A stretch of DNA of 62,550 nucleotides, the filler included, from Basidiobolus ranarum (Eukaryota), in assembly GCA_040143965.1 (NCBI GenBank). It is 38 parts of 38 records of this genome, joined end to end, with 100 filler letters (N's around TTAATTAATTAA, not from the genome) between each part and the next. Parts side by side here need not be neighbours in the genome. Positions count along the whole stretch, not along the records: positions 34,714 to 36,260 come from JASJQH010004868.1; 37 more parts are not named here. One strand, 5' to 3'. Below the pieces are notes generated by a model. That model was not told the DNA's origin, made no database searches, and saw nothing but the letters and a program-made list of their open reading frames with translations. Of this stretch, positions 5,890-62,550 are shown piece after piece. The position numbers and the translations under genes are program-made. The first letter of the stretch is position 1. Every line of letters begins with the position of its first letter.

Positions 5890-6525
5890 TATACAAATAT
5901 ATTAACAATATCCACAAATAACTCCCAATGTTGCCTATACTGATCAGGCAGAAATCTTTTCAAGATTCCTCTTCAATATATACAAATCCAATACTTCCAG
6001 TCTTTGCATTTGAATAAATACCCTGATGAGTGGAAATTAATGAGATTCCTGGTAAAGTATGATGGCATCCTGATGTTTTCAAGCATTTTCCAATTGATTC
6101 AAACTTTGATCCTATCTCAAATGGCTCATTCATATTGAATTTTCCACTATATAGCTGAGCAAGTATTATTGAAATGTTGTTGGATAGTAAGTGCATAGTG
6201 CCTGATGGGAAGCTTTGGCTCCAGATGATCCCCATTAGCAATATGATCTCTGGCTCATGGCTATGACAAAGTTTGAGGTTAGACTGACTTTGTGGTGAAT
6301 TGATATTGGTGAGCATGTGAAAATCTGACCAGGTTCTTGATATTGAGATCTTGGAGTTTGGCATTGTATTTGGATAGTAGTAATGCATGTGTCTGATTGG
6401 GTAACTTTGTTGATTTGACAAAATCTACAGCATGATAGTGCATTGCAGCTACCAGAACCTGCAAATTTACTGATGGCAGGAGTGGCACCAATTCATATAA
6501 TGATAGTAGCTTAAATAAGATATTC
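5890..6525 (-). pseudogene. Degenerate CACTA transposase fragment
   Basis: Homologous to 36382-37302 (WSQSFP.GTMHLL, YSGKFNMNEPFEIG) with frameshifts. Confidence 0.85.
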
Positions 6526-6625: not shown

Positions 6626-8181
6626 CTAGAAGTCTGTCTGAGTGTACCCCTTATCAAGCTTGGTTTGGAGTTAAACCTGATGTAAAACATTTGCAGATCT
6701 TTGGATGCATTGCTTATGTCAAAATTATGACCAAAAGTTGGTCTAAATTTGATCCAAAAAGTGAGAAATGCATATTTCTGGGTTATTGTACTCAAACTAA
6801 GGCATACATACTCTTTGATACCAGAATTTCCAAGTTAATCAAGTTCAGGGATGTTTTGTTTCACAAAATTGAAAAATTTTCACAAAAAATGACCTCAGCT
6901 GATGACAAAAATCAATTTTCTCCTGATCCAAGCATTCAAATTGATTCAAATCAAGACAATGAGGAAAGTAGCATTCCTGTGGACCCTTCAACCAAAATTT
7001 TGCCTACTGAAGTGCCCAATAAAATGCCAGAAGTTGTAGTACCCTTATCCCAAACCAGGAGCTCAAATTGAATCAGATATAGCCCTGATTACTATATCAA
7101 TGAGTCCCAAAATTGGGCCTATGCCTGCACAGCTCAAATACATGAACCACAGACTGTAAAAGAGGCCCTAAATGCCCTCACACAAAATTTTGGAGATTGG
7201 CAATGGTAGATGAGTACCAGGCTTTGATGGATAATCAAACTTGGATTTTAACCAACTTACCTAATGATAGAAAATCAATTGGCTGCCAATGGGTGTTTAA
7301 AGTTAAATACAACTCTGATGGCAATATATAAAGATACAAGGCTAGACTAGTAGCCAAAGGCTATTCCCAAACACCAGGAATAGATTATACAGAAGCTTGT
7401 GCTCCTGTAGCAAACTTTAATTCAATAAGATTAATTTTAGCAATTTTAGCTAAATATCAGTTTATTTACACTAAATGGATACTAAAACTACTTTTTTGAA
7501 TGGCAAGCTTGCTGAGGAGATCTATATGTACCAGCCAGACAGATTCTTGGATCCAGAAAACTCTAAAAAGGTTTGCAGACTCCAGAAAACACTCTATGGC
7601 TTAGAATAATCTCCAAGAGATTGGAATAGCAAGATAGATGCTTTTTTGGAAGCACTCAAATTCCAAAAGAGTAATACAGACTATAGTATCTAATTCAGGC
7701 CAGATAAGCCAAGCCCAGTTTTATTAGTCTTATCTGTAGATGATCTGATTACAGCCACCAATGACTTGAAGACTATTGAGAAAACTAAATATAGCTTATC
7801 TGCCAAATTCAAATTGACTGATCTTGGTGAACTGACATACTATCTTGCAATCCAAATTAAAATAGATAGAACAACCAAAACAATAATTTTAAGCCAGTCT
7901 AAGTATATCCTAGATTTACTAAAGAAGTTTAAAATGGAAGAATGTTATCCAGTGTCTACCCCAATGGAGACAAATCTTAACTTGATCAAAAATGGCTCAA
8001 ATCAGATGTTTTTGGATTCAAATGAAAACAAGAAATTTCCTTATCAATCTATGATTGGTAGTTTGATATATATCATGGCTGGAACATGGCTAGACATTGC
8101 ATATTCTGTCTGAGTTATGTGGCATTATCTTCAAAATTTAGGATTTGATCAAATCATAGCAGTTAAGTGGATTTTCAGATA
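6626..8181 (+). mobile_element. Ty1/copia pol pseudogene: integrase C-terminus and reverse transcriptase
   Basis: [57 protein letters not shown]; multiple stops. Confidence 0.93.
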
Positions 8182-8281: not shown

Positions 8282-9836
8282 TGTTGAACTTTGCTCAACT
8301 ATTGATTTACTATGTAATTGGGGGATTACAATCTCTTCACTTGCTCTATTACTGGAAAGGTACACATCTGGTAAATTGATCACCATTTTATCTTTACTTG
8401 AGTTAGGCTCTGGCATGTTAATGCCTTGCAAGGTGAATAGTGTATGCCTAGACTGCTTAGCATTTAAATCCTTTGCTCTAGCTGGTTTTTTTCCTTTTGT
8501 GCCAGCAGGCTCTTGCTTGAAAGCCAGTTTTGATTTAGAATTTGAATGCTTTTTGAATGGCATTTAAATTTTCAGATGTTAAACTTGTTGTAATGAAATT
8601 GCTAAGAATCAGCTTGTAATAAACAAAAATTGCCATCCATTACCAGAAATATCTTGTAAACCCCTGAAGACTCATCTGTGACACCATCTCAGAATCAGCT
8701 AATGATATTGATGGGCTATATCTAAAATACCACCCTTATGTAGGAGATGTTCTTGTTTCCATAACATCCATCTCATACTGCAACACAAACATTTAAAGAA
8801 GCCCTGTTATTAATGTCACAAATTCTAGTGCCACAAAAGCTGGTGGCTTCATAGAAAAAATAATCACAAGCATGGTCACTGTACAAAGCCACTTGCTGCT
8901 CAAAGCCTGGTGAATATCAACAGTAATAAGTGCAAAAAATGAACTTCAGTTTTGCTCACTGAGTCCACTGGCTGTGCTTTGGCTCAAAGTTTTGATAACA
9001 CTGCCAAAAGTCTAGATACCTTGGAGTTACCACAGTTATATGACCAGAGTGATGTAGGTAGATATGCAATTTTGATCAAACCAGTAAGTCTAGACAACTT
9101 TGAAGACCTGCTGTTAGATGTTGACCTTGGTTGTTGCTGTATGATGCTAGTATATCAGAATTCAAAGAAGAAGACAATGATTTTGTTACAGGCTCTTTGT
9201 TATTGTCAAGCATTAGTCCACTCATAACACTTACAGTAATGGAAGCAGCTTTGATTCTTGAAGAGTGGAGAGTTCAATCCAATCTTAGCAACCAGGCATT
9301 TATTGGTTTTCTCACACTTTTACCACAATTGATTGGCAACTGTTTCTTGCCACAGACCTGGTACAAGTGGGCAACACTTGTCAACTCCATTATGGACTTG
9401 TTCTCTGTGATAGTGCCAAATTGTGCTGTATATATCATATTGGTTAAAGTATTCTTAAATTTATGTGGCACAATTTGGCACTATCCAGCACCCTCTGGCA
9501 TGATCAATTTCAATCACATTAACTCTAATAAATTGATCCAAGGTCCATTAAATCCTGGCACAATGGAACAAGTCCAACTTATAATCCTTCAGTAATTAAA
9601 CTACCTACATGTCCAAATGGTTGTTTGGCTTTCATCAGTGACCTGAAAAACCTGAAGTCATGTACTGTTTGCACACAATTGGCAACCACTGAATCAGGTA
9701 AATAATGTGCATATTTGGCTTACATACCATTGATTCCCTGTCTTAAAGTTTTGATGAAATCATCCAAATGTAGTTCCTTGATCTAATACTAAAGTACTCC
9801 CTGCAAAGCTAATGGTATTACCAATATACTTGATGG
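8282..9836 (+). mobile_element. CACTA internal segment: divergent ORF2 start (8563, - strand) and transposase N-terminal region (+ strand)
   Basis: MPFKKHS.. ORF2 on minus; EWRVQSNLSNQ..LPQTWYKW..CPNGC..CTVC on plus. Same layout at 51163-52704 and 59370-60910. Confidence 0.82.
9393..9576. mobile_element. MITE-like insertion in the CACTA transposase
   Basis: TGGACTTGTTC / GAACAAGTCCA terminal inverted repeat and an internal perfect 18-bp inverted repeat (9409-9426 / 9468-9485). Absent from the homologous site near 52370. Confidence 0.75.
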
Positions 9837-34613: not shown

Positions 34614-34714
34614 NNNNNNNNNNNNNNNNNNNNNNNNNNNNNNNNNNNNNNNNNNNNTTAATTAATTAANNNNNNNNNNNNNNNNNNNNNNNNNNNNNNN
34701 NNNNNNNNNNNNNG

Positions 34715-35218
34715 TGTTCTATTCAGGGGTATAAGAAGGATGGGACGCCATTTACGGCGGATGAGGAGATATTTGGTATTAGAGATGATGCGGAATATGT
34801 GTACGATGGGATGTATGGGAATATGGTACAGGATCCTGTGTCGGTAGGAGTGGTATATTATTTGGCGTTAAAGCATCAGGTCAAGGATAAGATTCATGTT
34901 AGGATGCCATCTGGTCCTAAGAGTTCGTTTAGTGGGCAACCTGTATCGGGAAGAGCCAAGGGTGGTGGGTTAAGATTTGGGGAGATGGAGATGGATTGTT
35001 TGATTGCTCATGGTGCGTCAGATACGATGCATAATATTATTGCGCAGAGTGATATGGAAAGGGTTGGGTGGTGTGAGAAGTGTGAGATAATGGTTCCGGT
35101 GTCGAATATAATATGTCCTATATGTGAGGGACAGACAAAGGGCAGGGATGTTTCACATTCGTTGATATCTTTTTCGCATATAATGGCATCTATGAATGTT
35201 GGTATGAAGTTAAAATAG
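34715..35218 (+). CDS. Divergent multisubunit RNA polymerase second-largest subunit (Rpb2/beta-like), C-terminal fragment; virus- or plasmid-like
   Basis: Open from the contig edge: DGTPFT..EYVYDG.YG..YYLALKHQVKDKIHVR..GQPVSGRAKGGGLRFGEMEMDCLIAHGA..CEKC..CPIC..MASMNV; intronless. Confidence 0.92.
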   Translation, partial: CSIQGYKKDGTPFTADEEIFGIRDDAEYVYDGMYGNMVQDPVSVGVVYYLALKHQVKDKIHVRMPSGPKSSFSGQPVSGRAKGGGLRFGEMEMDCLIAHGASDTMHNIIAQSDMERVGWCEKCEIMVPVSNIICPICEGQTKGRDVSHSLISFSHIMASMNVGMKLK

Positions 35219-35329
35219 ATATGGGACGGGGGGTTGGTGTTTAGGATGAAAAGGTTTAGTTTGGAGAAAAGTTTGGGATTAAGGTAAGGAGAAAGTTTCG
35301 AACCAAGATTTAAAATGGGTTTGGAAAAA

Positions 35330-36260
35330 TAGTTTTAAAAAGTTTTAAATCGGGTCTGTGAGAGAGTTCTAAGTTAGATCATAATTAGGGTTCTAGATAA
35401 TATTTTGCGAAATAAATTTAGAAAGTTTTAAATTGGGTTTGTGAGAGAGTTCTAAGTTAGATCATAATTAGGGTTCTAGATAATATTTTGCGAAATAAAT
35501 TTAGAAAGTTTTAAATTGGGTCTGTGAGAGAGTTCTAAGTTAGATTCGAATTAAGGTTTTAAAATAAGACTTGTTGCGAAATAAATTTAGAAAGTTTTTA
35601 ATTAAGTTCTAAGTTAGATTTGAATTAGGGTTACGGTGAGAGGTAAAGGAAAAAAAACTTGTTGCGAAATAATTTTAAAAAGTTTTAAATCGGGTCTGTG
35701 AGAGAGTTCTAAATTAAGTTTGTTGCGAAATAATTTTTAAAAAGTTTTAAATTAAGATCCGAATTTAGTTTTTAATTAAGTTCTAGTTTAGATTCTAATT
35801 AGGGTTTAAAAGAAATATTTTGCGAAATAAATTTAGAAAGTTTTAAATTAAGATTCGGATTTGGTCTTGAATTAGATTCCCATTTAAGCTCCTAATTAGG
35901 TTCTAATTAAAGTTTGTTGCGAAGATAATTTTAAAAAAATTTAAATTAAGATCCGAATTATGTTTCTAATTAAGTTCTAGTTTAGATTCTAATTAGGGTT
36001 TAAAAGAAATATTTTACGAAGAAAGTTTTAAATTAAGATTCGGATTTGGTCTTGAATTAGATTCCCGTTTAAGCTCCTAATTAGGTTCTAATTAAAGTTT
36101 GTTGCGAAATAATTTTAAAAAATTTAAATTAAGATCCGAATTTAGTTTTTAATTAAGTTCTAGTTTAGATTCTAATTAGGGTTACGGTGAGAGGTAAAGG
36201 AAAATAAATATTTTACGAAGAAATTTTAAATTAAGATTCGAATTAGATTCCCGTTTAAGC
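35330..36260. repeat. AT-rich hierarchical tandem array, truncated by contig end
   Basis: TT(G/A)CGAA core at 35405, 35488, 35574, 35662, 35723, 35820, 35917, 36014, 36102 and 36213; 11-12 bp sub-repeats lie between cores. Confidence 0.93.
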
Positions 36261-36360: not shown

Positions 36361-37907
36361 AATTACAAAATCTTTGCACAGTCACTGTATCTGCCTGAGA
36401 TCTGCCAATGTGAGTTGATACCATAAGAATATATTAACTATATCAACAAACAACTCCCAATGGTGGCAATACTTATCAGGCAGAAAACTTTTCAAGATTC
36501 CACTTGAATACATACAAATCCAATACTTCCAGTCTTTGCATTTGAATAAATGCCTAGGTGAGTGGATATTGCTGGGAGTCCCAGTAAAATATGATGGTAT
36601 CTTGACACTTTCAAGCATTTTCCCAATCAATTCAAACTTTAATCCTGCCTCAATTGGCTCATTCATATTGAATTTTCCACTATATAGCGGAGTAAGTAGT
36701 ATTGGAATGTTGTTGAATAGTAGGTGCATAGTGCCTAATGGGAAGTACTGGCTCCAGCTGAGCCCCTTTAGCAATATAATCTTAGGCTTATTGCTGATAC
36801 CAAGTTTGATGTTAAACTGACTATTTGGTGAATTGATATCAGTGATCATGTCAAAATCTGACCGGGCTCTTGATGGTAAAATCATGGAGTTTAGTGTTGT
36901 ATTTAGATAGTAATAATGAATATGCCTGATAGAGTAAACTCCATTGGTTTGACAAAATCTACAGCAAGATAGTGCATTGTGCCCACAAACACCTCCAAGT
37001 TTACTGATGGCAGGAGTGTCACCAATACATACAATGATATTTGATTTAACAAAATATTCACCCATCTGAATCCCATTAGAAAACCATTCAGATTCCACAA
37101 TCAAAGGCTTCAAGAAGCTATCTACAAGCACTGGTGATTTAGGTCCAGATATGATGGATAGTATCAAAATATTGTGACTCTTATACCGTTCAGAAGGAGC
37201 AAGATCTAAGTTAATTAAAATTATCAGCCAGCAAGCCTTTCCAATGGTATATTTGTATAGTGAGAAACCATCCAGAGCCAATGCAAATGCATGATCATAC
37301 ATGCTCTCAAAGAAACCTTGACTTTTCAGATTCTGGTAGTATATCCATCAAGTATATTGGTAATACCATCAGCTTTACAGTGAGTACTTTGATATTGGAT
37401 CAATGATCTATATTTGGGTGATTACTTCAAAACTTTAAGATGAGGAATCAATGGTATGTAAGCCAAAGGTGAACAATATTTACATGATTCAGTGATTGCC
37501 AATTGTGTGCAAACAGTACATGACTTCAGGTTTTTCAGATCACTGGTGAAAGCCAAACAACCATTAGGACATGAAGATAGTTTAGTTACTGAATGATCAT
37601 AAGTCATATGATTGACAAATGTTTTCCACTTGTACCAGGTCTGTGGCAAGCAACAGTTGCCAATCAACTTTGGTAAAAGTGTAAGAAATCCAATAAACAC
37701 CTGGATGCTAAGATTGGATTGAACTCTCCACTCCTCAATAATCAAATCTGCTTCCTGTACAGTATGTGTTATGAGTGGACTAATGTTTGCCAATAACAAA
37801 GAGTCTGTAACAAAACCATTGTCTTCTTCTTCAACTTCTGATATACTACCATTGGTAATGGAATAACAAAGGTCAATATCTAGCAGCAAGTCCTCAAAGT
37901 TTTCTGG
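36361..37907 (-). mobile_element. CACTA/En-Spm transposase (Tnp2/Transposase_21 type), partly decayed
   Basis: ALALDGFSL..CW.IILINL.L.PSERY..IISGPKSP..DSFLKPLI..IGDTPAISKLGG..GHNA..CCRFC. Confidence 0.92.
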
Positions 37908-47877: not shown

Positions 47878-49420
47878 GTCGAGTATATGCTTGGAAAATA
47901 ACTGTCGATAGCTTGAGTTTACGATAATATTTACGTGCTAAGAGCCCTCGGACTTGAGTTTGGATTATACAAGCAGAATTGGCCAATTTATCTGAACGAA
48001 GTTTCTCAAGGTAGGCTAACTGGCCAGCTCTGAAGAACACCTTGGTAGAGCCGAGTTGATATTTATCGGGGTTATTAATGGTATGTTGCAGTATTGACAT
48101 GGTGAATTTGGACAAATCCTGTCGGCTCCATTGAGATGGAGGCAACAGTAGGTAGTATCTGTCAACAAATTCTTCAATGGATCTTCTTGAAGGGTATCCT
48201 TCACAACTGATACGAATTGTCTCGAGCACGCCGCAAGCTCTTAATTGAGAAATTACCATCTGGGAATCAAATGACCAAGGTTTCTTTTCCTCATTGGGTT
48301 TGATACAACGGATGTAATGGACGTTTGTTGAATTAACTGTATCCATTAAGCTGATCAAAGAGCTCTTAAAAGATGACCCAAGAGTTTTCTTCTTTAAGGC
48401 TACTCCCATGCTACGCCTAGCTGAACTAGGGTTGATAGGCTGTTCATCAACAGGCGTAGGTAGAATATCCTTCAAGAAGTCGAATTCGGAGTTAGACAAA
48501 ACACTGGATAGCTCGTCTGAAATAGTATCTTTGTTTTTATCCAAAAATCCCTCGCCTTCATAAGCAACATCATGGGCATAATGACAAATTGTAAATGCAG
48601 TATTGGAGAACTTCGGTTTCTTGAAAAAGCCAGTGTTTTCGGGGCTTTCATATTGTTTGTATAGCTTGCTAATGAATGAGCTGTCAGTCCCGGAAGGTAA
48701 TCTGCTCTCTTCATCTAAAAGTGCCAAAATACCGAGCCTTCCTTCGATCAGATCAATACAAGGCTGGTTGTCACTGAAGTCTATAAAGTTCCAAGCAATC
48801 TGCTCTTTGACGTACTCTTCTTGCTCCAATTTGAAGACATGCTTATTGAATTCTTGTTGAAGTTTTTCATTGGCATAATTGATGCAAAACTGTTCAAAAG
48901 AATTTCTCTCGAAATGCTCGAAGCCATAAATATCCAACACGCCTATAAATGAATTGGCAGTCTTGGAGATCTCTTCAGTGCATAAACTCTTGTTTATAAT
49001 CCTAATCAGCCAATCAAATAAATTGGCATACACAAACTTAGCGACAGCATCTCTTGCAGCAACCGCTTCAGCAGGTTTTAAATTTGAGAGGATACTTTCG
49101 GTTCGCGCTACTATTTGCCTCTTCACCAACCATTTACGGAAATTGTTAGGATTGAGCTCCAAGAGACTTGTAACGATCTTGAACGAGGCATCAGTCTCGT
49201 CTATCATAGCACCTAATTTATCCGATCCACCGATGTTAATGTTACCAAGGTGGAGCAATGCGGCTAGAATTCTGAATATCTTCTTCTGTACATCCACAGA
49301 TACTCCTATCAGAGTCAACGATTTCCTGGTCAGTTCGAGTTCTTCACGATCATCAACATCAGGGATAATCCCCAGTCCGCCTTGATTTAAATAATTAAAA
49401 TCAGAATATTCTCCAATTGC
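47878..49420 (-). CDS. MYO2: Class V myosin, motor domain to first IQ motifs (internal fragment)
   Basis: IGVLDIYGFEHF, NSFEQFCINYANEKLQQEFN, HYIRCIKPN, QLRACGVLETIRISC, IQTQVRG; frame open across the contig. Confidence 0.95.
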
Positions 49421-56087: not shown

Positions 56088-57628
56088 GTGAATTAATATG
56101 CATGCCTTTATTTAGATATTTAAGGCTTTGTATTTCAGTCATAATGAGAATCAAAAAATACAAGAATCTTGTTTTGTTTAGTCTCTACATATGCACATAT
56201 TTGACTGATTAGACATCTCAACAACATCAATATGCTTTACTAGCAAACTAATAGTGGGAAAATTGCTAAACATCTGAAATTTCAAATAGCACTAACACTT
56301 GGCAAATGGCTGACTCTTGTTACCATTCACAATGAGAATAAGCCCTTGGATTTTGGCAAATTTCCGTAAAGAATTCAGCCAATATATCCCCAACTTGTAA
56401 TCAACAAATGTCCTGCCACAAGTAGATGTTTCATTACTTGAACAGATTACCCCATGGCTAAAACAATAAAACTGCATATCTCCATCTATCTCACCAAGAA
56501 GTGTGTCTTGCAGCTTTCCTAAAAATACCTTCAGATTATCACACAAGCAAATTATTCCAAATATGAAGATACTTACTCTGTGTCCATGAATTGGGCTTTG
56601 TTGCTGTTATTGTGCTCAAACAATGCAAAAACCCATGAGCACATTGATAAGAGCCCTTTGCTGGCAGGTTAATATACTCTGGAGTCTGCTGAACCCATTG
56701 CATTACATCCATCACTGATTTTGCTGATACATTGTTAATCAGATTAGCATACGGTAATACTGACGATTTCACACGGAGCATCATTTCACCGCAGGTGCGC
56801 TCCATTGGGAACTCCCAGAATGTATAGCAAGGGCCTATAATCTCTAAGCATTGTGAAAGATGCAGCAGGGAATGTATTGAATACCGGCATAGATTCAGTC
56901 TATCTTCTTTAAACCTGTAATAAAGTTTTTCATATCCAATTACAAAATCTTCGCACAGTCGCTGTATCTGCCTGAGATCTGCCAATGTGAGTTGATGCCG
57001 TAAGAATATATTAACAATATCGACAAACAACTCCCAATGTTGCCAATACTTATCAGGCAGAAATCTTTTCAAAATTCCACTTGAATATATACAAATCCAA
57101 TACTTCCAGTCTTTGCATTTGAATAAATGCCTAGATGAGTGGATATTGATGGGAGTCCTGGTAAAATATGATGGTATCTTGACGTTTTCAAGCATTTTCC
57201 CAATCAATTCAAACTTTGATCCTATCTCAAATGGCTCATTCATATTGAATTTTCCACTGTATAGCTGAGTAAGTAGTATCGGAATGTTGTTGAATAGTAA
57301 GTGCATGGTGCCTAATGGGAAGCTCTGGCTCCAGCTGATCCCCTTTAGCAATATAATCTTAGGCTTACGGCTAATACCAAGTTTGATGTTAGACTGACTA
57401 TTTGGTGAATTGATATCAGTGATCATGTTGAAATCTGACCGGGCTCTTGATGGTAAAATCATGGAGTTTAGTGTTGTATTTGGATAGTAGTAATGCGTAT
57501 GCCTGTTAGAGTAAACTCCATTGATTTGACAAAATCTACAGCAAGATAGTGCATTGTGCCCGCGAAAACCTCCAAGTTTACTGATGGCAGGAGTGTCACC
57601 AATACATACAATGATATTAGCTTTAATA
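56088..57628 (-). mobile_element. Least-decayed CACTA transposase copy: frame open 57627-56577, intron 56576-56519, 3' exon
   Basis: SIHSLLHL..GP..FWEFPMER motif; GTAAGT..TTTTAG intron restores the frame; CpGs retained. Confidence 0.9.
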
Positions 57629-59369: not shown

Positions 59370-60910
59370 TAGGCCTATACTAGCCCAATTGCCATTTGCT
59401 TGCAAAAACCCAGGATAAGCCACATGAAATAAGTCAAGAACCTTCAGAGTAACACCTGGTTTTTGGTTTTTCCATGATTGGCTCAAATCCTGGTGATTTT
59501 GGGCAAGATTCTGCACAGCTTCCAAAATGTTAAACCACTCATCATCAGAGCAAGTGATGGCAGCTCTGACATTCAGAGTCTTCTGCTTTGCCAGTTTTCC
59601 TATGAGATTCCTACTTTCACATGCCCAAGCAATTTTGGATCATTGTGTAGGCTTAATGGTCCAACACATATTCTGCTCTGCATGACTGTCATGGTGATGT
59701 TCATATGAATGGTGTGGGATTGATTGAAATCCCCTATGAGAATGGACAGAGGAAGCAGCATGTTGCTGAAGCTCAAGTACAGGATTCTCAAGGTCTTGTT
59801 TCATTGTTAGGTGACTCTCTAACTATTACCTAGTTGCTTCTGGACACTGCATTAATTGCAATATTGCAGTATTATTACCTGTCATGGTCTGTATAGCAAC
59901 TTTGTAGTTTTTACTTATGATTGCTTACAAATCATTATGATGTTCTGCCTGCAACTCCCTTGTTGTAACAATTATATCCAAATTTTCTATGGAGGGTTGT
60001 TCAATAGTGAGCAAAGTAGCCATTTTGGAAGCTAATGGTCTTGATGATGTTTTGGTTGAACTTTGCTACGTAATTGGGGGATTACAATCTCTTCACTTGC
60101 ACTATTGCTGGATAGGAACACATCTGGAAAATTGATTAATACTTGATCATTACCTAAGTTAGTTTCCAGCTTATTAATGCCTTTGAAAGTGGTTAGTGGA
60201 TTGCTAGACTGCCCATCAATTAAATCCCCTGTTCTTGCTGGTTTTCTTTGTTTTGTGCCAGCAAGCTTTGGCTTGGAAGCTGATTTTGATTTATATTTTG
60301 AATGCTTTTTGAATGGCACTGAAATTTTCAGATGGGAAACTTGGAGTAATGAAATTGCTTAGAAACAGCTTATTATAAGCCTAAATTGGCATTGATTACA
60401 GGAAATATCTTGTCAATCCCTTGATGACTCATCTGTGACACTGTCTCAGAATCAGCTGATGATATTGATGGGCTATACCTAAAGTACCACCCTCCCCTAG
60501 GAGGTATTCTTCTTTCTACACTATCCTTCTCATGCTGCAACACAAACATTTAAAGCAGCCCTGTTATTATTGCCACAGATTCTTGTGCTATGAAAGCCAG
60601 AGGCTTCATAAAAATATAATCACAAGCATGGTCACTGTACAAAGCCACCAGCTGAACCAAGCCTGGTGTATAACAACTGTAATAAGTGCACTAAATTAAC
60701 TTTAGTTTTGCCCATTGAGTCTACTAACTGTACTTTGTCTCAAAGTTTCATTAACACTGCCAAAAGTCAAGATACCATGGAGTTACCACAGTTATATGAC
60801 CAAATAATGTGGGTAGAAATGCAACTTTGGCATACCAGTAAGTCCAGACAACTTTGAGGACTTGTTGCTAGATGTTGACCTTGGTTATTCCAGTACCAAT
60901 GGTAGTATAT
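59370..60910 (+). mobile_element. CACTA internal segment with ORF2 (-, starts 60319) and transposase 5' region
   Basis: MPFKKHSKYK..; overlaps 18049-18107 and 20540-21300. Confidence 0.8.
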
Positions 60911-61264
60911 NNNNNNNNNNNNNNNNNNNNNNNNNNNNNNNNNNNNNNNNNNNNTTAATTAATTAANNNNNNNNNNNNNNNNNNNNNNNNNNNNNNNNNN
61001 NNNNNNNNNNATATATTATATATGTATGTGAATAATGTGAGAATTAGCAATTCCATATTGGAAATTTCAAACTCATCCAAATTGCCCCAAAGATGGCTCA
61101 TTTTACTCCCACAGATGTTCTTAACACAACCCCAGTGTTAGTTTTCTGTATTTCCACCAAAATGTATAAATGCTTTATTTCTTGATAATAAATAATTATC
61201 TTACAAAGCAATTCATAACTCCACTTTTCTAAAGTTCCTCCAAACAGCCCATATTTTCCCAATA

Positions 61265-62550
61265 GACACTCCTGCCATCAGTAAACTTGGAGGTTTTTGC
61301 AGGCACAATGTACTATCCTGCTGTAGAGCGTGTCAAGTCAATGGAGTCTACTCTATTGGGCATATGCATTACTACTATCCAAATACTAAACTAAACTCCA
61401 TGACTTTACCATCAAGCGCCCAGTCAGATTTTAACACAATAACTGATATCAATTCACCAAATACTCAGTCTAACATCAAACTTGGTATTAGCTATAAGCC
61501 TAAGATTATATTGCTAAAGAGGATCAGCTGGAGCCAGAGCTACCTATTAGGCACTCTGCACTTACTATTCAACAACATTCCAATACTACTAACTCAGCTA
61601 TATAGTGGAAAATTCAATATGATGAGCCATTTGAGATAGGATCAAAGTTTGAATCAATTGAGAAAACGCTAGAAAACAGCAACATACCATCATATTTTAC
61701 TGGGACTCCCATCAATATCCACTCATCTATGTATTTATTCCAATTCAAAGACTGGAAGTATTGGATTTGTATATATTCAAGTGGAATCTTGAAAATATTT
61801 CTGCCTGATAAGTATTGGCAACAATGGGAGTTTTTTGTGGATGTTATTAATATATTCTTATAGCATCAACTCACATTGGCAGATCTCTGGCAGATACAGC
61901 AACTGTGCAAAGTTTTTTTAATTGGATATGAAAAAACTTTATTACAGGTTTAAAGAAGATCAACTGAATCTATGCCAGTATTTGATACATTCCCTGCTGC
62001 ATCTTTCACAATGCTTTGAGATTATAGGCCCTTGCTATACATTCTGGGAGTTTCCATTGGAGTATACCTGTGGTTAAATGATGCTCCATGTGAAGTTGTC
62101 AGTATTACCATATGCTAATCTGATTAATAATATATCAGCAAAATCAGTGATGCATATAATGTGATGGGTTAAGGAGACTCCAGAGTATATTAACCTTCCA
62201 ACAAAGGGCTCTTTCAATGTGCTCACAGGTTTTTGCATTGTTTGAGCACAATAACAGCAACAAAGCCTAATCCATGGACATAGAGTAAGTACCTCTATAA
62301 TTTGGACTAATTTGTTTATGTAATAATCAGATGGTATTTCTAGGTAAGCTGCAAGACAGATTTCCTGGTGGGATTGATTGAGATATGCAGTATTATTGTT
62401 TTAGCCATGGGTTAATCAATTCAAGCAATGACACATCTTCTTGTGGTAGGACATTTGTTGACTGCAAGTTGGGGATATTTTGGCTGAATTCTTTATGGAA
62501 ATTTGCCAAAATCCAAGAGCTTATTCTCATTATGAATGGTAACAAGAGTC
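61265..62550 (+). pseudogene. CACTA transposase, decayed copy
   Basis: Colinear with the reverse complement of 56320-57600; intron signals kept near 62285-62343. Confidence 0.88.

Follow-up and report, generated by a model that had tools for sequence, protein, structure and literature searches.

The question raised by positions 34,715-35,218 of the analysed stretch of the Basidiobolus ranarum assembly GCA_040143965.1 (62,550 bases in full, hereafter the window) is to which kind of genome a fragment encoding the C-terminal end of a second-largest RNA polymerase subunit belongs: that of a cell, of a linear plasmid or of a large DNA virus. The window is no single locus and consists of 38 unrelated pieces of 1540-1557 bp each, arranged in descending order of size and joined by N44-TTAATTAATTAA-N44 linkers (for example, 34614-34713; 76 runs of 44 N are found in pairs around TTAATTAATTAA); therefore, any reading based on adjacency across a linker is invalid. 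The fragment is located on one of these pieces, a contig of 1547 bp (34714..36260) that is bounded by an artificial linker on each side, has a composition unique within the window and contains no second gene besides the RPB2 tail. We estimate at roughly 0.85 the probability that the gene whose 3' end lies on this contig is a virus-derived one of the RPB2 type and belongs to a compact clade, with members in early-diverging fungi, an alga and metagenomes, that is typical of a lineage resembling nucleocytoplasmic large DNA viruses (NCLDV).

The open reading frame (ORF) extends without interruption on the plus strand through 167 codons (34715-35215) to a TAG stop codon (35216-35218); it is open at the 5' end only because the contig begins at 34714, so that the 5' part of the gene is cut off by the contig edge. 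Two Pfam domains were detected in the predicted protein above the respective cut-offs, namely, the end of Rpb2 domain 6 (Rpb2_6, hybrid-binding; amino acids 24-82, 34784..34960; profile positions 316-373 of 373 in PF00562; 54.7 bits, E 1.2e-14, cut-off 23.4) and Rpb2 domain 7 (Rpb2_7, clamp/anchor; amino acids 84-166, 34964..35212; profile positions 1-84 of 87 in PF04560; 59.8 bits, E 3.7e-16, cut-off 32.1). The latter includes the GGLRFGEME motif at amino acids 84-92 (34964-34990) and a four-cysteine zinc ribbon of the archaeal/eukaryotic type, CEKC...CPIC (Cys120, Cys123, Cys134 and Cys137; 35072..35125); both GGLRFGEME and all four cysteines fall in invariant columns of the 14-sequence family alignment. 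These are the features of an Rpb2/beta subunit, whereas the two motifs characteristic of the cellular Rpb2 proteins, YYQRLRHMVDDK and GEMERDC, are both altered in the fragment. Where the aligned Komagataella Pol II subunit has yyqrlrhmvddk, gemerdc and gpvqvltrqp, the fragment has YYLALKHQVKDK, GEMEMDC and GPKSSFSGQP, and the spacing between DGTPFT and EYVYDG is exactly 12 residues. The preliminary description of this DNA, made by inspection of the sequence, had noted an intronless Rpb2/beta C-terminus with the switch motif and the zinc ribbon, departures from the cellular polymerases at conserved sites and a gap of about 12 residues between DGTPFT and EYVYDG, and all these observations hold.

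The search for homologues points away from the host polymerases. In a word-indexed search of longer proteins, in which 80 of 150 candidates passed an E-value of 0.001, the best match was ORX98269.1 from Basidiobolus meristosporus (84% identity, E 7.8e-94), a protein of 485 amino acids encoded on a 164-kb contig; the pairwise alignment contains 140 identical residues of 167 and 94% positives, has no gap and ends with the same C-terminal residues. The next matches are proteins of approximately 830-960 amino acids with 42-49% identity. An exhaustive search of cluster representatives yielded 7207 proteins at E 0.001, of which 7 reached E 1e-30 or better. When ORX98269.1 (P0001 in the trees below) was used as the query, 94 of the 95 best rows were proteins of 850-1101 amino acids that contain Rpb2_3, Rpb2_6 and Rpb2_7 and have no Pfam hit to Rpb2_2 (the lobe domain), the sole exception being an arthropod POLR2B. 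The named members of this compact family come from Mortierella sp. GBA30, Podila clonocystis, Linnemannia elongata and the charophyte alga Closterium sp. NIES-64; the remaining ones are metagenome proteins from contigs of up to approximately 137 kb. The full-length relatives, of which the nearest are P0002 and P0095 (approximately 960 amino acids each), end with Rpb2_7. The fragment scores 330 bits against the Basidiobolus homologue and 114-157 bits against the proteins of the compact clade, compared with 70-85 bits (E 1e-17 to 5e-23) against the solved archaeal, Pol I, Pol II and Pol III chains, 77-84 bits against Rpb2 of yeast, Komagataella and S. pombe, and 65.6 bits against the vaccinia subunit in solved structures. 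A profile scan of IMG/VR retrieved only typical giant-virus RPB2, the best 80 matches being 27-34% identical to the compact family in the best tblastn segment, and a search of the same database with P0017 as the only query detected no relative; a motif pattern specific for the family matched one IMG/VR contig, of 51.7 kb.

For phylogenetic analysis, 113 hand-picked sequences were aligned over 532 columns spanning P0001; this set comprises the fragment, 27 compact proteins, 3 compact loci, 30 giant-virus RPB2 ORFs from IMG/VR and 40 unlabelled proteins, with 10 named archaeal RpoB loci, chosen from 80 archaeal loci, and 2 named microsporidian RPB2 (Pol II) as references. The Pol III clade was labelled through the PDB (P0241 scores 1047 bits against human RPC2); the trees include no labelled Pol I and no family-labelled NCLDV, and the deep placement of clades should not be taken from them. 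In the FastTree phylogeny, the grouping of the fragment with P0001, the addition of P0002 and P0095 to this pair, and the compact clade as a whole (31 tips, stem length 0.61) all received support of 1.0; a quick IQ-TREE search on 47 rows gave SH-aLRT values of 100, 99 and 100 for the same three groups. In both trees, no archaeal sequence, no member of the Pol III clade and neither of the two named Pol II sequences falls within the compact clade. The branch leading to the fragment is about six times longer than that leading to P0001 (0.16 versus 0.025 in IQ-TREE). Judged by these sequence comparisons, the fragment is a member of the compact clade rather than a host polymerase, while the point at which this clade attaches is not given by the trees. 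Clustering with a cellular polymerase, together with a lack of viral hallmark genes of the same depth or composition, had been named in the preliminary description as the outcome that would contradict a viral source; both the protein searches and the trees place the fragment in the compact clade instead.

The gene neighborhoods of the relatives link this clade to replication and transcription genes of the viral type. On the 51.7-kb IMG/VR contig, of which positions 5563-51666 (46.1 kb) were read, we identified a family B DNA polymerase (PolB, 826 amino acids), a D5-type primase-helicase, an RPB1 split into an N-terminal gene (610 amino acids) and a C-terminal gene (416 amino acids), and a compact RPB2 of 891 amino acids immediately preceded by a DUF5757 protein. 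The same contig encodes a protein with an mRNA N7-methyltransferase domain, an SNF2-type helicase, an XPG-type nuclease, a GNAT acetyltransferase, a MutS-HNH protein (917 amino acids), a phage-type lysozyme with a peptidoglycan-binding domain and a uracil-DNA glycosylase-like protein, the latter a weak match below the Pfam cut-off; its ORFs of 837, 572, 493, 476 and 384 amino acids gave only chance-level Pfam matches (E >=0.01). The JGI contig L081 carries the DUF5757-RPB2 pair, a capping enzyme and two helicases. In both relatives read (L081, 1-2178; L162, 6895-8769), the gene immediately upstream of the compact RPB2 thus encodes a DUF5757 protein of 625-725 amino acids, and the pair is a case of conserved synteny in these two. 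Comparison of the DUF5757 protein with the PDB sequences produced no meaningful match (best E 0.54), and the one paper that a literature search listed for DUF5757/PF19061 has no passage on it in its main text.

Several published systems come close to this gene. The fundsalphaviruses are endogenous NCLDV-like elements recovered in a PolB screen of 1,006 fungal genomes (PMC7017919; Gong, Zhang, Han 2020, Virus Evol 6:veaa008), with 14 host species from six phyla that include B. meristosporus, B. heterosporus and two Mortierella species; the shared genes described for them are D5, a D6/D11-like SNF2 helicase, an S-adenosylmethionine (SAM) methyltransferase, RPB2, RPB5 and RPB1 split into N- and C-terminal parts, and their PolB is placed near Pithovirus, with moss NCLDV-like sequences inside the group (PMC7017919). 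These elements resemble the present case in several respects: the host genus is shared, RPB2 is among the six shared genes that are listed for these elements, and the relatives of the fragment carry D5, an SNF2 helicase, a methyltransferase and a split RPB1 next to PolB. The difference is that section 4 of PMC7017919 makes no mention of a strand-biased composition or of retained CpG. As described there, the screen relied on PolB and its flanks, so a 1.5-kb contig with only the tail of RPB2 would escape it. A full-text search found the name fundsalphavirus in PMC7017919 only, and a literature search returned no paper joining Basidiobolus with Nucleocytoviricota. The typical RPB2 of Nucleocytoviricota (giant-virus genomes of the IMG/VR GVMAG set) is the same subunit, with Rpb2_6 and Rpb2_7 and a neighborhood of the same viral transcription and replication type; its ORFs among the tree loci are 1072-1307 amino acids long, and the compact family differs in having no Pfam hit to the lobe domain.

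The polymerase of the pGKL2-type linear plasmids (K2ORF6p/K2ORF7p) is likewise a reduced multisubunit enzyme of NCLDV ancestry that is found in fungi and accompanied by its own capping enzyme and helicase. However, K2ORF6p is a single beta-beta' fusion of 974 amino acids in which the beta' regions follow the beta part, as described in PMC6211774, whereas the protein encoded by the fragment stops after the beta clamp domain and the relatives have a separate RPB1. The Mycodnaviridae and Mycodnavirales, too, are Nucleocytoviricota of early-diverging fungi (PMC13533422, PMC13524828), but by their description the Mycodnaviridae stand apart, being close to Algavirales/Imitervirales and having been found via the capsid gene in zoosporic fungi (PMC13533422); the text of that paper does not contain the words Basidiobolus, Mortierellaceae or Pithoviridae.

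Taken together, these comparisons support a viral origin of the gene, as opposed to a cellular or a pGKL2-type one. The preliminary description had suggested a large DNA virus or a linear element: the viral part of this suggestion is strengthened by the viral-type clade and by relatives that lie beside PolB, D5, a split RPB1, a capping enzyme and an SNF2 helicase, whereas the pGKL2-type option falters on the missing beta-beta' fusion. Its further proposal of a possibly undescribed lineage is not supported, given that NCLDV-like elements with RPB2 are already on record for B. meristosporus and B. heterosporus in the host and gene lists of PMC7017919.

A number of points weigh against the assignment of this gene to a virus-derived clade, or at least limit it. 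The deep position of the compact clade is weakly supported (0.74-0.84 in FastTree), with the corresponding forks open in IQ-TREE, and the nearest rows outside it are unlabelled Pol II-like proteins (P0158, P0185 and P0230, with 952, 683 and 603 bits, respectively, to Pol II chains; P0158 and P0230 were scored against mammalian RPB2). Of the 51.7-kb relative contig, 46.1 kb were read and yielded no Pfam capsid or packaging ATPase; the label 'virus' therefore rests on replication and transcription genes. The putative viral linkage is drawn from the relatives only, since the contig of the fragment holds 167 codons and no other viral gene, and none of the 37 other contigs in the window matches its composition. 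The gene model of ORX98269.1 covers only the C-terminal 485 amino acids, so that the B. meristosporus copy may be truncated or mis-modelled. That the RPB2 of the Basidiobolus fundsalphaviruses is the present gene is something we infer from the gene set and the host list given in PMC7017919. Finally, the study on Mycodnaviridae reports no NCLDV capsid match by hmmsearch in 40 non-zoosporic lineages, and its wider Mycocosm search is described as producing a single non-zoosporic match, in Dimargaris (PMC13533422).

The composition of the contig is unlike that of anything else in the window. It contains 8% C and 24% G, with a GC skew of +0.50 and an observed-to-expected (o/e) CpG ratio of 1.39; the other 37 contigs have absolute GC skews of at most 0.25 and CpG o/e ratios of <0.25 (28 contigs) or 0.34-0.82 (9 contigs). 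Within the ORF, C occurs 19, 31 and 4 times at codon positions 1, 2 and 3, respectively, of the 167 codons, and the third positions consist of 40% G, 39-40% T and 18% A. Accordingly, codons end in T 66 times and in C 4 times, in G 55 times (ATG and TGG excluded) and in A 30 times; all six Leu codons are TTR and all six Arg codons AGR, so that CTN Leu and CGN Arg codons are absent. The 1,042 non-coding bases 3' of the stop codon are biased in the same direction (C 7%, G 20%). By comparison, third-position C amounts to 18-34% in the same gene of three relatives and to 23-34% in the host-type ORFs on other contigs, namely, a myosin and two ORFs that, from their translations, we take to encode ribosomal protein S4 and a sulfite reductase. 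The G/T skew of the coding strand that had been remarked on at the outset is thus confirmed (2% third-position C against 23-34% in host genes), and so is the retention of CpG relative to the repeats, with the qualification that the 'neighbouring repeats' of the preliminary description are other contigs of the same assembly rather than flanking DNA, given the linkers that separate the pieces.

The protein has withstood this bias. The fragment has 31 residues that require C in their codons (P, H, Q, T, A) where the B. meristosporus copy has 32; none of its 6 Gln codons has become a stop, its 7 Pro are intact, and the 45 invariant columns of the family are kept without exception. The 27 amino acid differences from the B. 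meristosporus copy are directional, with changes of the ANN->GNN type in 9 cases versus 1 in reverse, and K->R in 3 versus R->K in 1. It follows that one strand has been under a pressure to lose C and acquire G and T, in part at least after this copy and that of B. meristosporus diverged, while selection kept the protein. In mitochondrial genomes, deamination of C and A on a strand that is exposed as single-stranded DNA for long periods gives such a pattern, and single-strand deamination is the likeliest candidate for the kind of process behind the bias here. Two other sources were considered and rejected: a bisulfite-like artefact, given that only 41 of the 122 C are in CpG and the other 81 precede T, A or C, and decay similar to repeat-induced point mutation (RIP) or caused by an unselected deaminase, given that C is kept at positions 1 and 2, the Gln codons are intact and CpG is over-represented.

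Given that the CpG decay of the assembly repeats is absent in this copy, it should be a recent or unmethylated insertion, or else DNA of a replicating element. The latter option, namely, that the contig is DNA of a still-replicating Basidiobolus-associated element with a compact, fundsalphavirus-like RPB2 and not a fossil, we regard as unlikely. Under this scenario, the genome would be copied or transcribed in a strand-asymmetric manner that leaves one strand single-stranded for long, for example, by strand displacement of a linear genome, and this exposure would drive C-to-T and A-to-G changes in the coding strand, with polymerase function maintained by selection. Conversely, the gene might belong to an old endogenous viral element that is inherited vertically and has been domesticated under purifying selection at the level of the host, without being part of any virus or episome of today, a possibility on the unlikely side. 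The fragment shares 84% identity with its B. meristosporus counterpart, and so does the host myosin, which fits co-divergence with the host, although this single comparison may involve paralogues (84, 79 and 65% identity); the B. meristosporus copy is located on a 164-kb contig; such sequences are interpreted as endogenous in the account of Gong et al. (PMC7017919); and the protein is conserved, with 94% positives, no indel and 45 invariant columns kept. Domestication is, however, difficult to reconcile with 2% third-position C compared with 23-34% in host genes, with undepleted CpG in an assembly where o/e is <0.25 in 28 of the 37 other contigs, and with downstream non-coding repeats that carry the same strand bias, which is unexpected for a chromosomal gene of the host; nor does a lone RNA polymerase subunit have an obvious use for the host.

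The odd composition could also result from an artefact or one-off hypermutation, such as deaminase editing of a dead copy, and here the loss of C and gain of G on one strand only, reaching into non-coding DNA, the roughly sixfold longer terminal branch (0.16 versus 0.025) and the directional amino acid changes (9 versus 1 for ANN->GNN) are compatible; but editing that leaves 4 C in 167 third positions should also strip most C from positions 1 and 2 and turn Gln codons into stops, whereas 50 C remain at these positions, 6 Gln, 7 Pro and 45 invariant columns are intact, and CpG is over-represented rather than depleted, making this explanation very unlikely. We consider it highly improbable that the fragment represents the polymerase of a yeast-type cytoplasmic linear plasmid similar to pGKL2. 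Such plasmids, with NCLDV-derived RNA polymerase, helicase and capping genes, were reported in 2026 in Zoopagomycota and Mucoromycota (PMC13348850), the contig is AT-rich and ends in repeats, and a replicon that uses strand displacement could yield strand asymmetry; yet translation ends at the TAG stop two codons past the Rpb2_7 match, and non-coding repeats follow where a beta-beta' fusion would continue, the full-length relatives also finish with Rpb2_7, and the two whose context was read (contigs of 19-52 kb) have separate RPB1-N and RPB1-C genes and a PolB of 826 amino acids that is not of the terminal-protein type. In this comparison, K2ORF6p was represented by its published architecture, not by its sequence; Basidiobolus has 0 occurrences in the text of PMC13348850. 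The least probable explanation of those considered is a cellular Pol I, II, III or archaeal subunit, from the host or from a contaminant. The matches to solved archaeal and eukaryotic subunits (E 1e-17 to 5e-23) and the Pol II-like character of the nearest rows outside the compact clade speak for it, but these matches reach 70-85 bits against 330 for Basidiobolus and 114-157 for the compact clade, which forms a fully supported monophyletic group on a long stem outside the archaea, Pol III and the two named Pol II sequences; motifs that are near-universal in cellular enzymes are altered, and the relatives adjoin viral replication genes. That the closest relative resides in another Basidiobolus genome argues against a random contaminant.

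If the fragment indeed comes from a virus-derived gene, the compact RPB2 clade (approximately 850-1100 amino acids) would be typical of an NCLDV-like lineage inserted in Basidiobolus, Mortierellaceae and a streptophyte alga; the present piece encodes the last part of the hybrid-binding domain together with the clamp/anchor domain, which binds zinc. Judging by the gene content of the relatives, in an intact element RPB2 would pair with an RPB1 made as two separate genes, and the virus-encoded polymerase would work together with the capping/methyltransferase enzyme and the SNF2-type helicases of the element. This copy would have stayed under purifying selection while one of its strands strongly lost C and gained G and T. 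As such, the fragment is one more trace of the NCLDV-like elements known from Basidiobolus and other early-diverging fungi, without contributing a novel gene or mechanism; only its composition extends past what we saw described. With foreign codon usage, retained CpG and C depleted at synonymous sites alone, this composition is not expected of a dead insertion, and it bears on whether non-zoosporic fungi still host large DNA viruses. Should the element prove to be replicating, it would give the first indication that an extant large DNA virus or episome is present in a non-zoosporic fungus, and its codon usage (2% third-position C) would be extreme, unlike that of the three clade relatives whose DNA was read. 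The compact-RPB2 clade itself is large, with members in fungi, an alga and many metagenome contigs, yet it is nearly absent from IMG/VR, and a capacity of its members to make virions would be conjectural, given the lack of a Pfam capsid on the one contig read.

One algal sequence has an unusual structure. In the Closterium sp. NIES-64 protein CAI6006202.1 (P0094; 455 amino acids, on a 152.9-kb contig), the fragment is matched in five stretches, with three pieces of Rpb2_7, and this pattern suggests that the same viral gene was inserted into a streptophyte alga in duplicated or scrambled form. Such an insertion fits the report of moss NCLDV-like sequences inside the fungal group.

Downstream of the gene, beginning approximately 100 bp after the stop codon and extending to the end of the contig (35320..36260, plus strand), repeat analysis revealed a degenerate array of direct repeats with units of 83-97 bp, a GC content of 23-27% and little C; it has no inverted repeats and no ORF of at least 50 amino acids wholly within it, and the contig as a whole has no Rfam or tRNA match. 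The break in the assembly at this point is probably due to the array. Six of the repeat units (35385-36181) contain one TTAGGG each, always on the G-rich strand; a telomere array was considered and rejected, given that the hexamer is found only once per unit and that its count across the window, 27, is close to the 24.8 +/- 5.3 expected by chance. One 14-mer of the array is common to one other contig of the window.

The identity of the host follows from another contig, which encodes an intron-free piece of a myosin V motor (514 amino acids; 47879-49420, minus strand) with 84% identity to B. meristosporus Myo2 and 82% to a B. ranarum myosin, compared with <=59% for the next genera; B. meristosporus has at least three myosin paralogues that are 84, 79 and 65% identical to this piece. 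On the strength of this protein comparison, the assembly is fungal and the host is a Basidiobolus species. In most of the other contigs of the window, CpG o/e is 0.00-0.20 (for example, 6626-8181, 8282-9836 and 59370-60910), and many of these CpG-poor contigs contain retrotransposon-like ORFs with translations similar to reverse transcriptase or integrase; the CpG loss across contigs suggests heavy methylation-driven decay of repeats in this fungus. A further repeated ORF family, with a GDTPAISKLGG...CCRFC motif, is present at 36385-37347, 56542-57627, 61196-61636 and 5963-6424 and resembles a transposase of the KDZ/Plavaka type.

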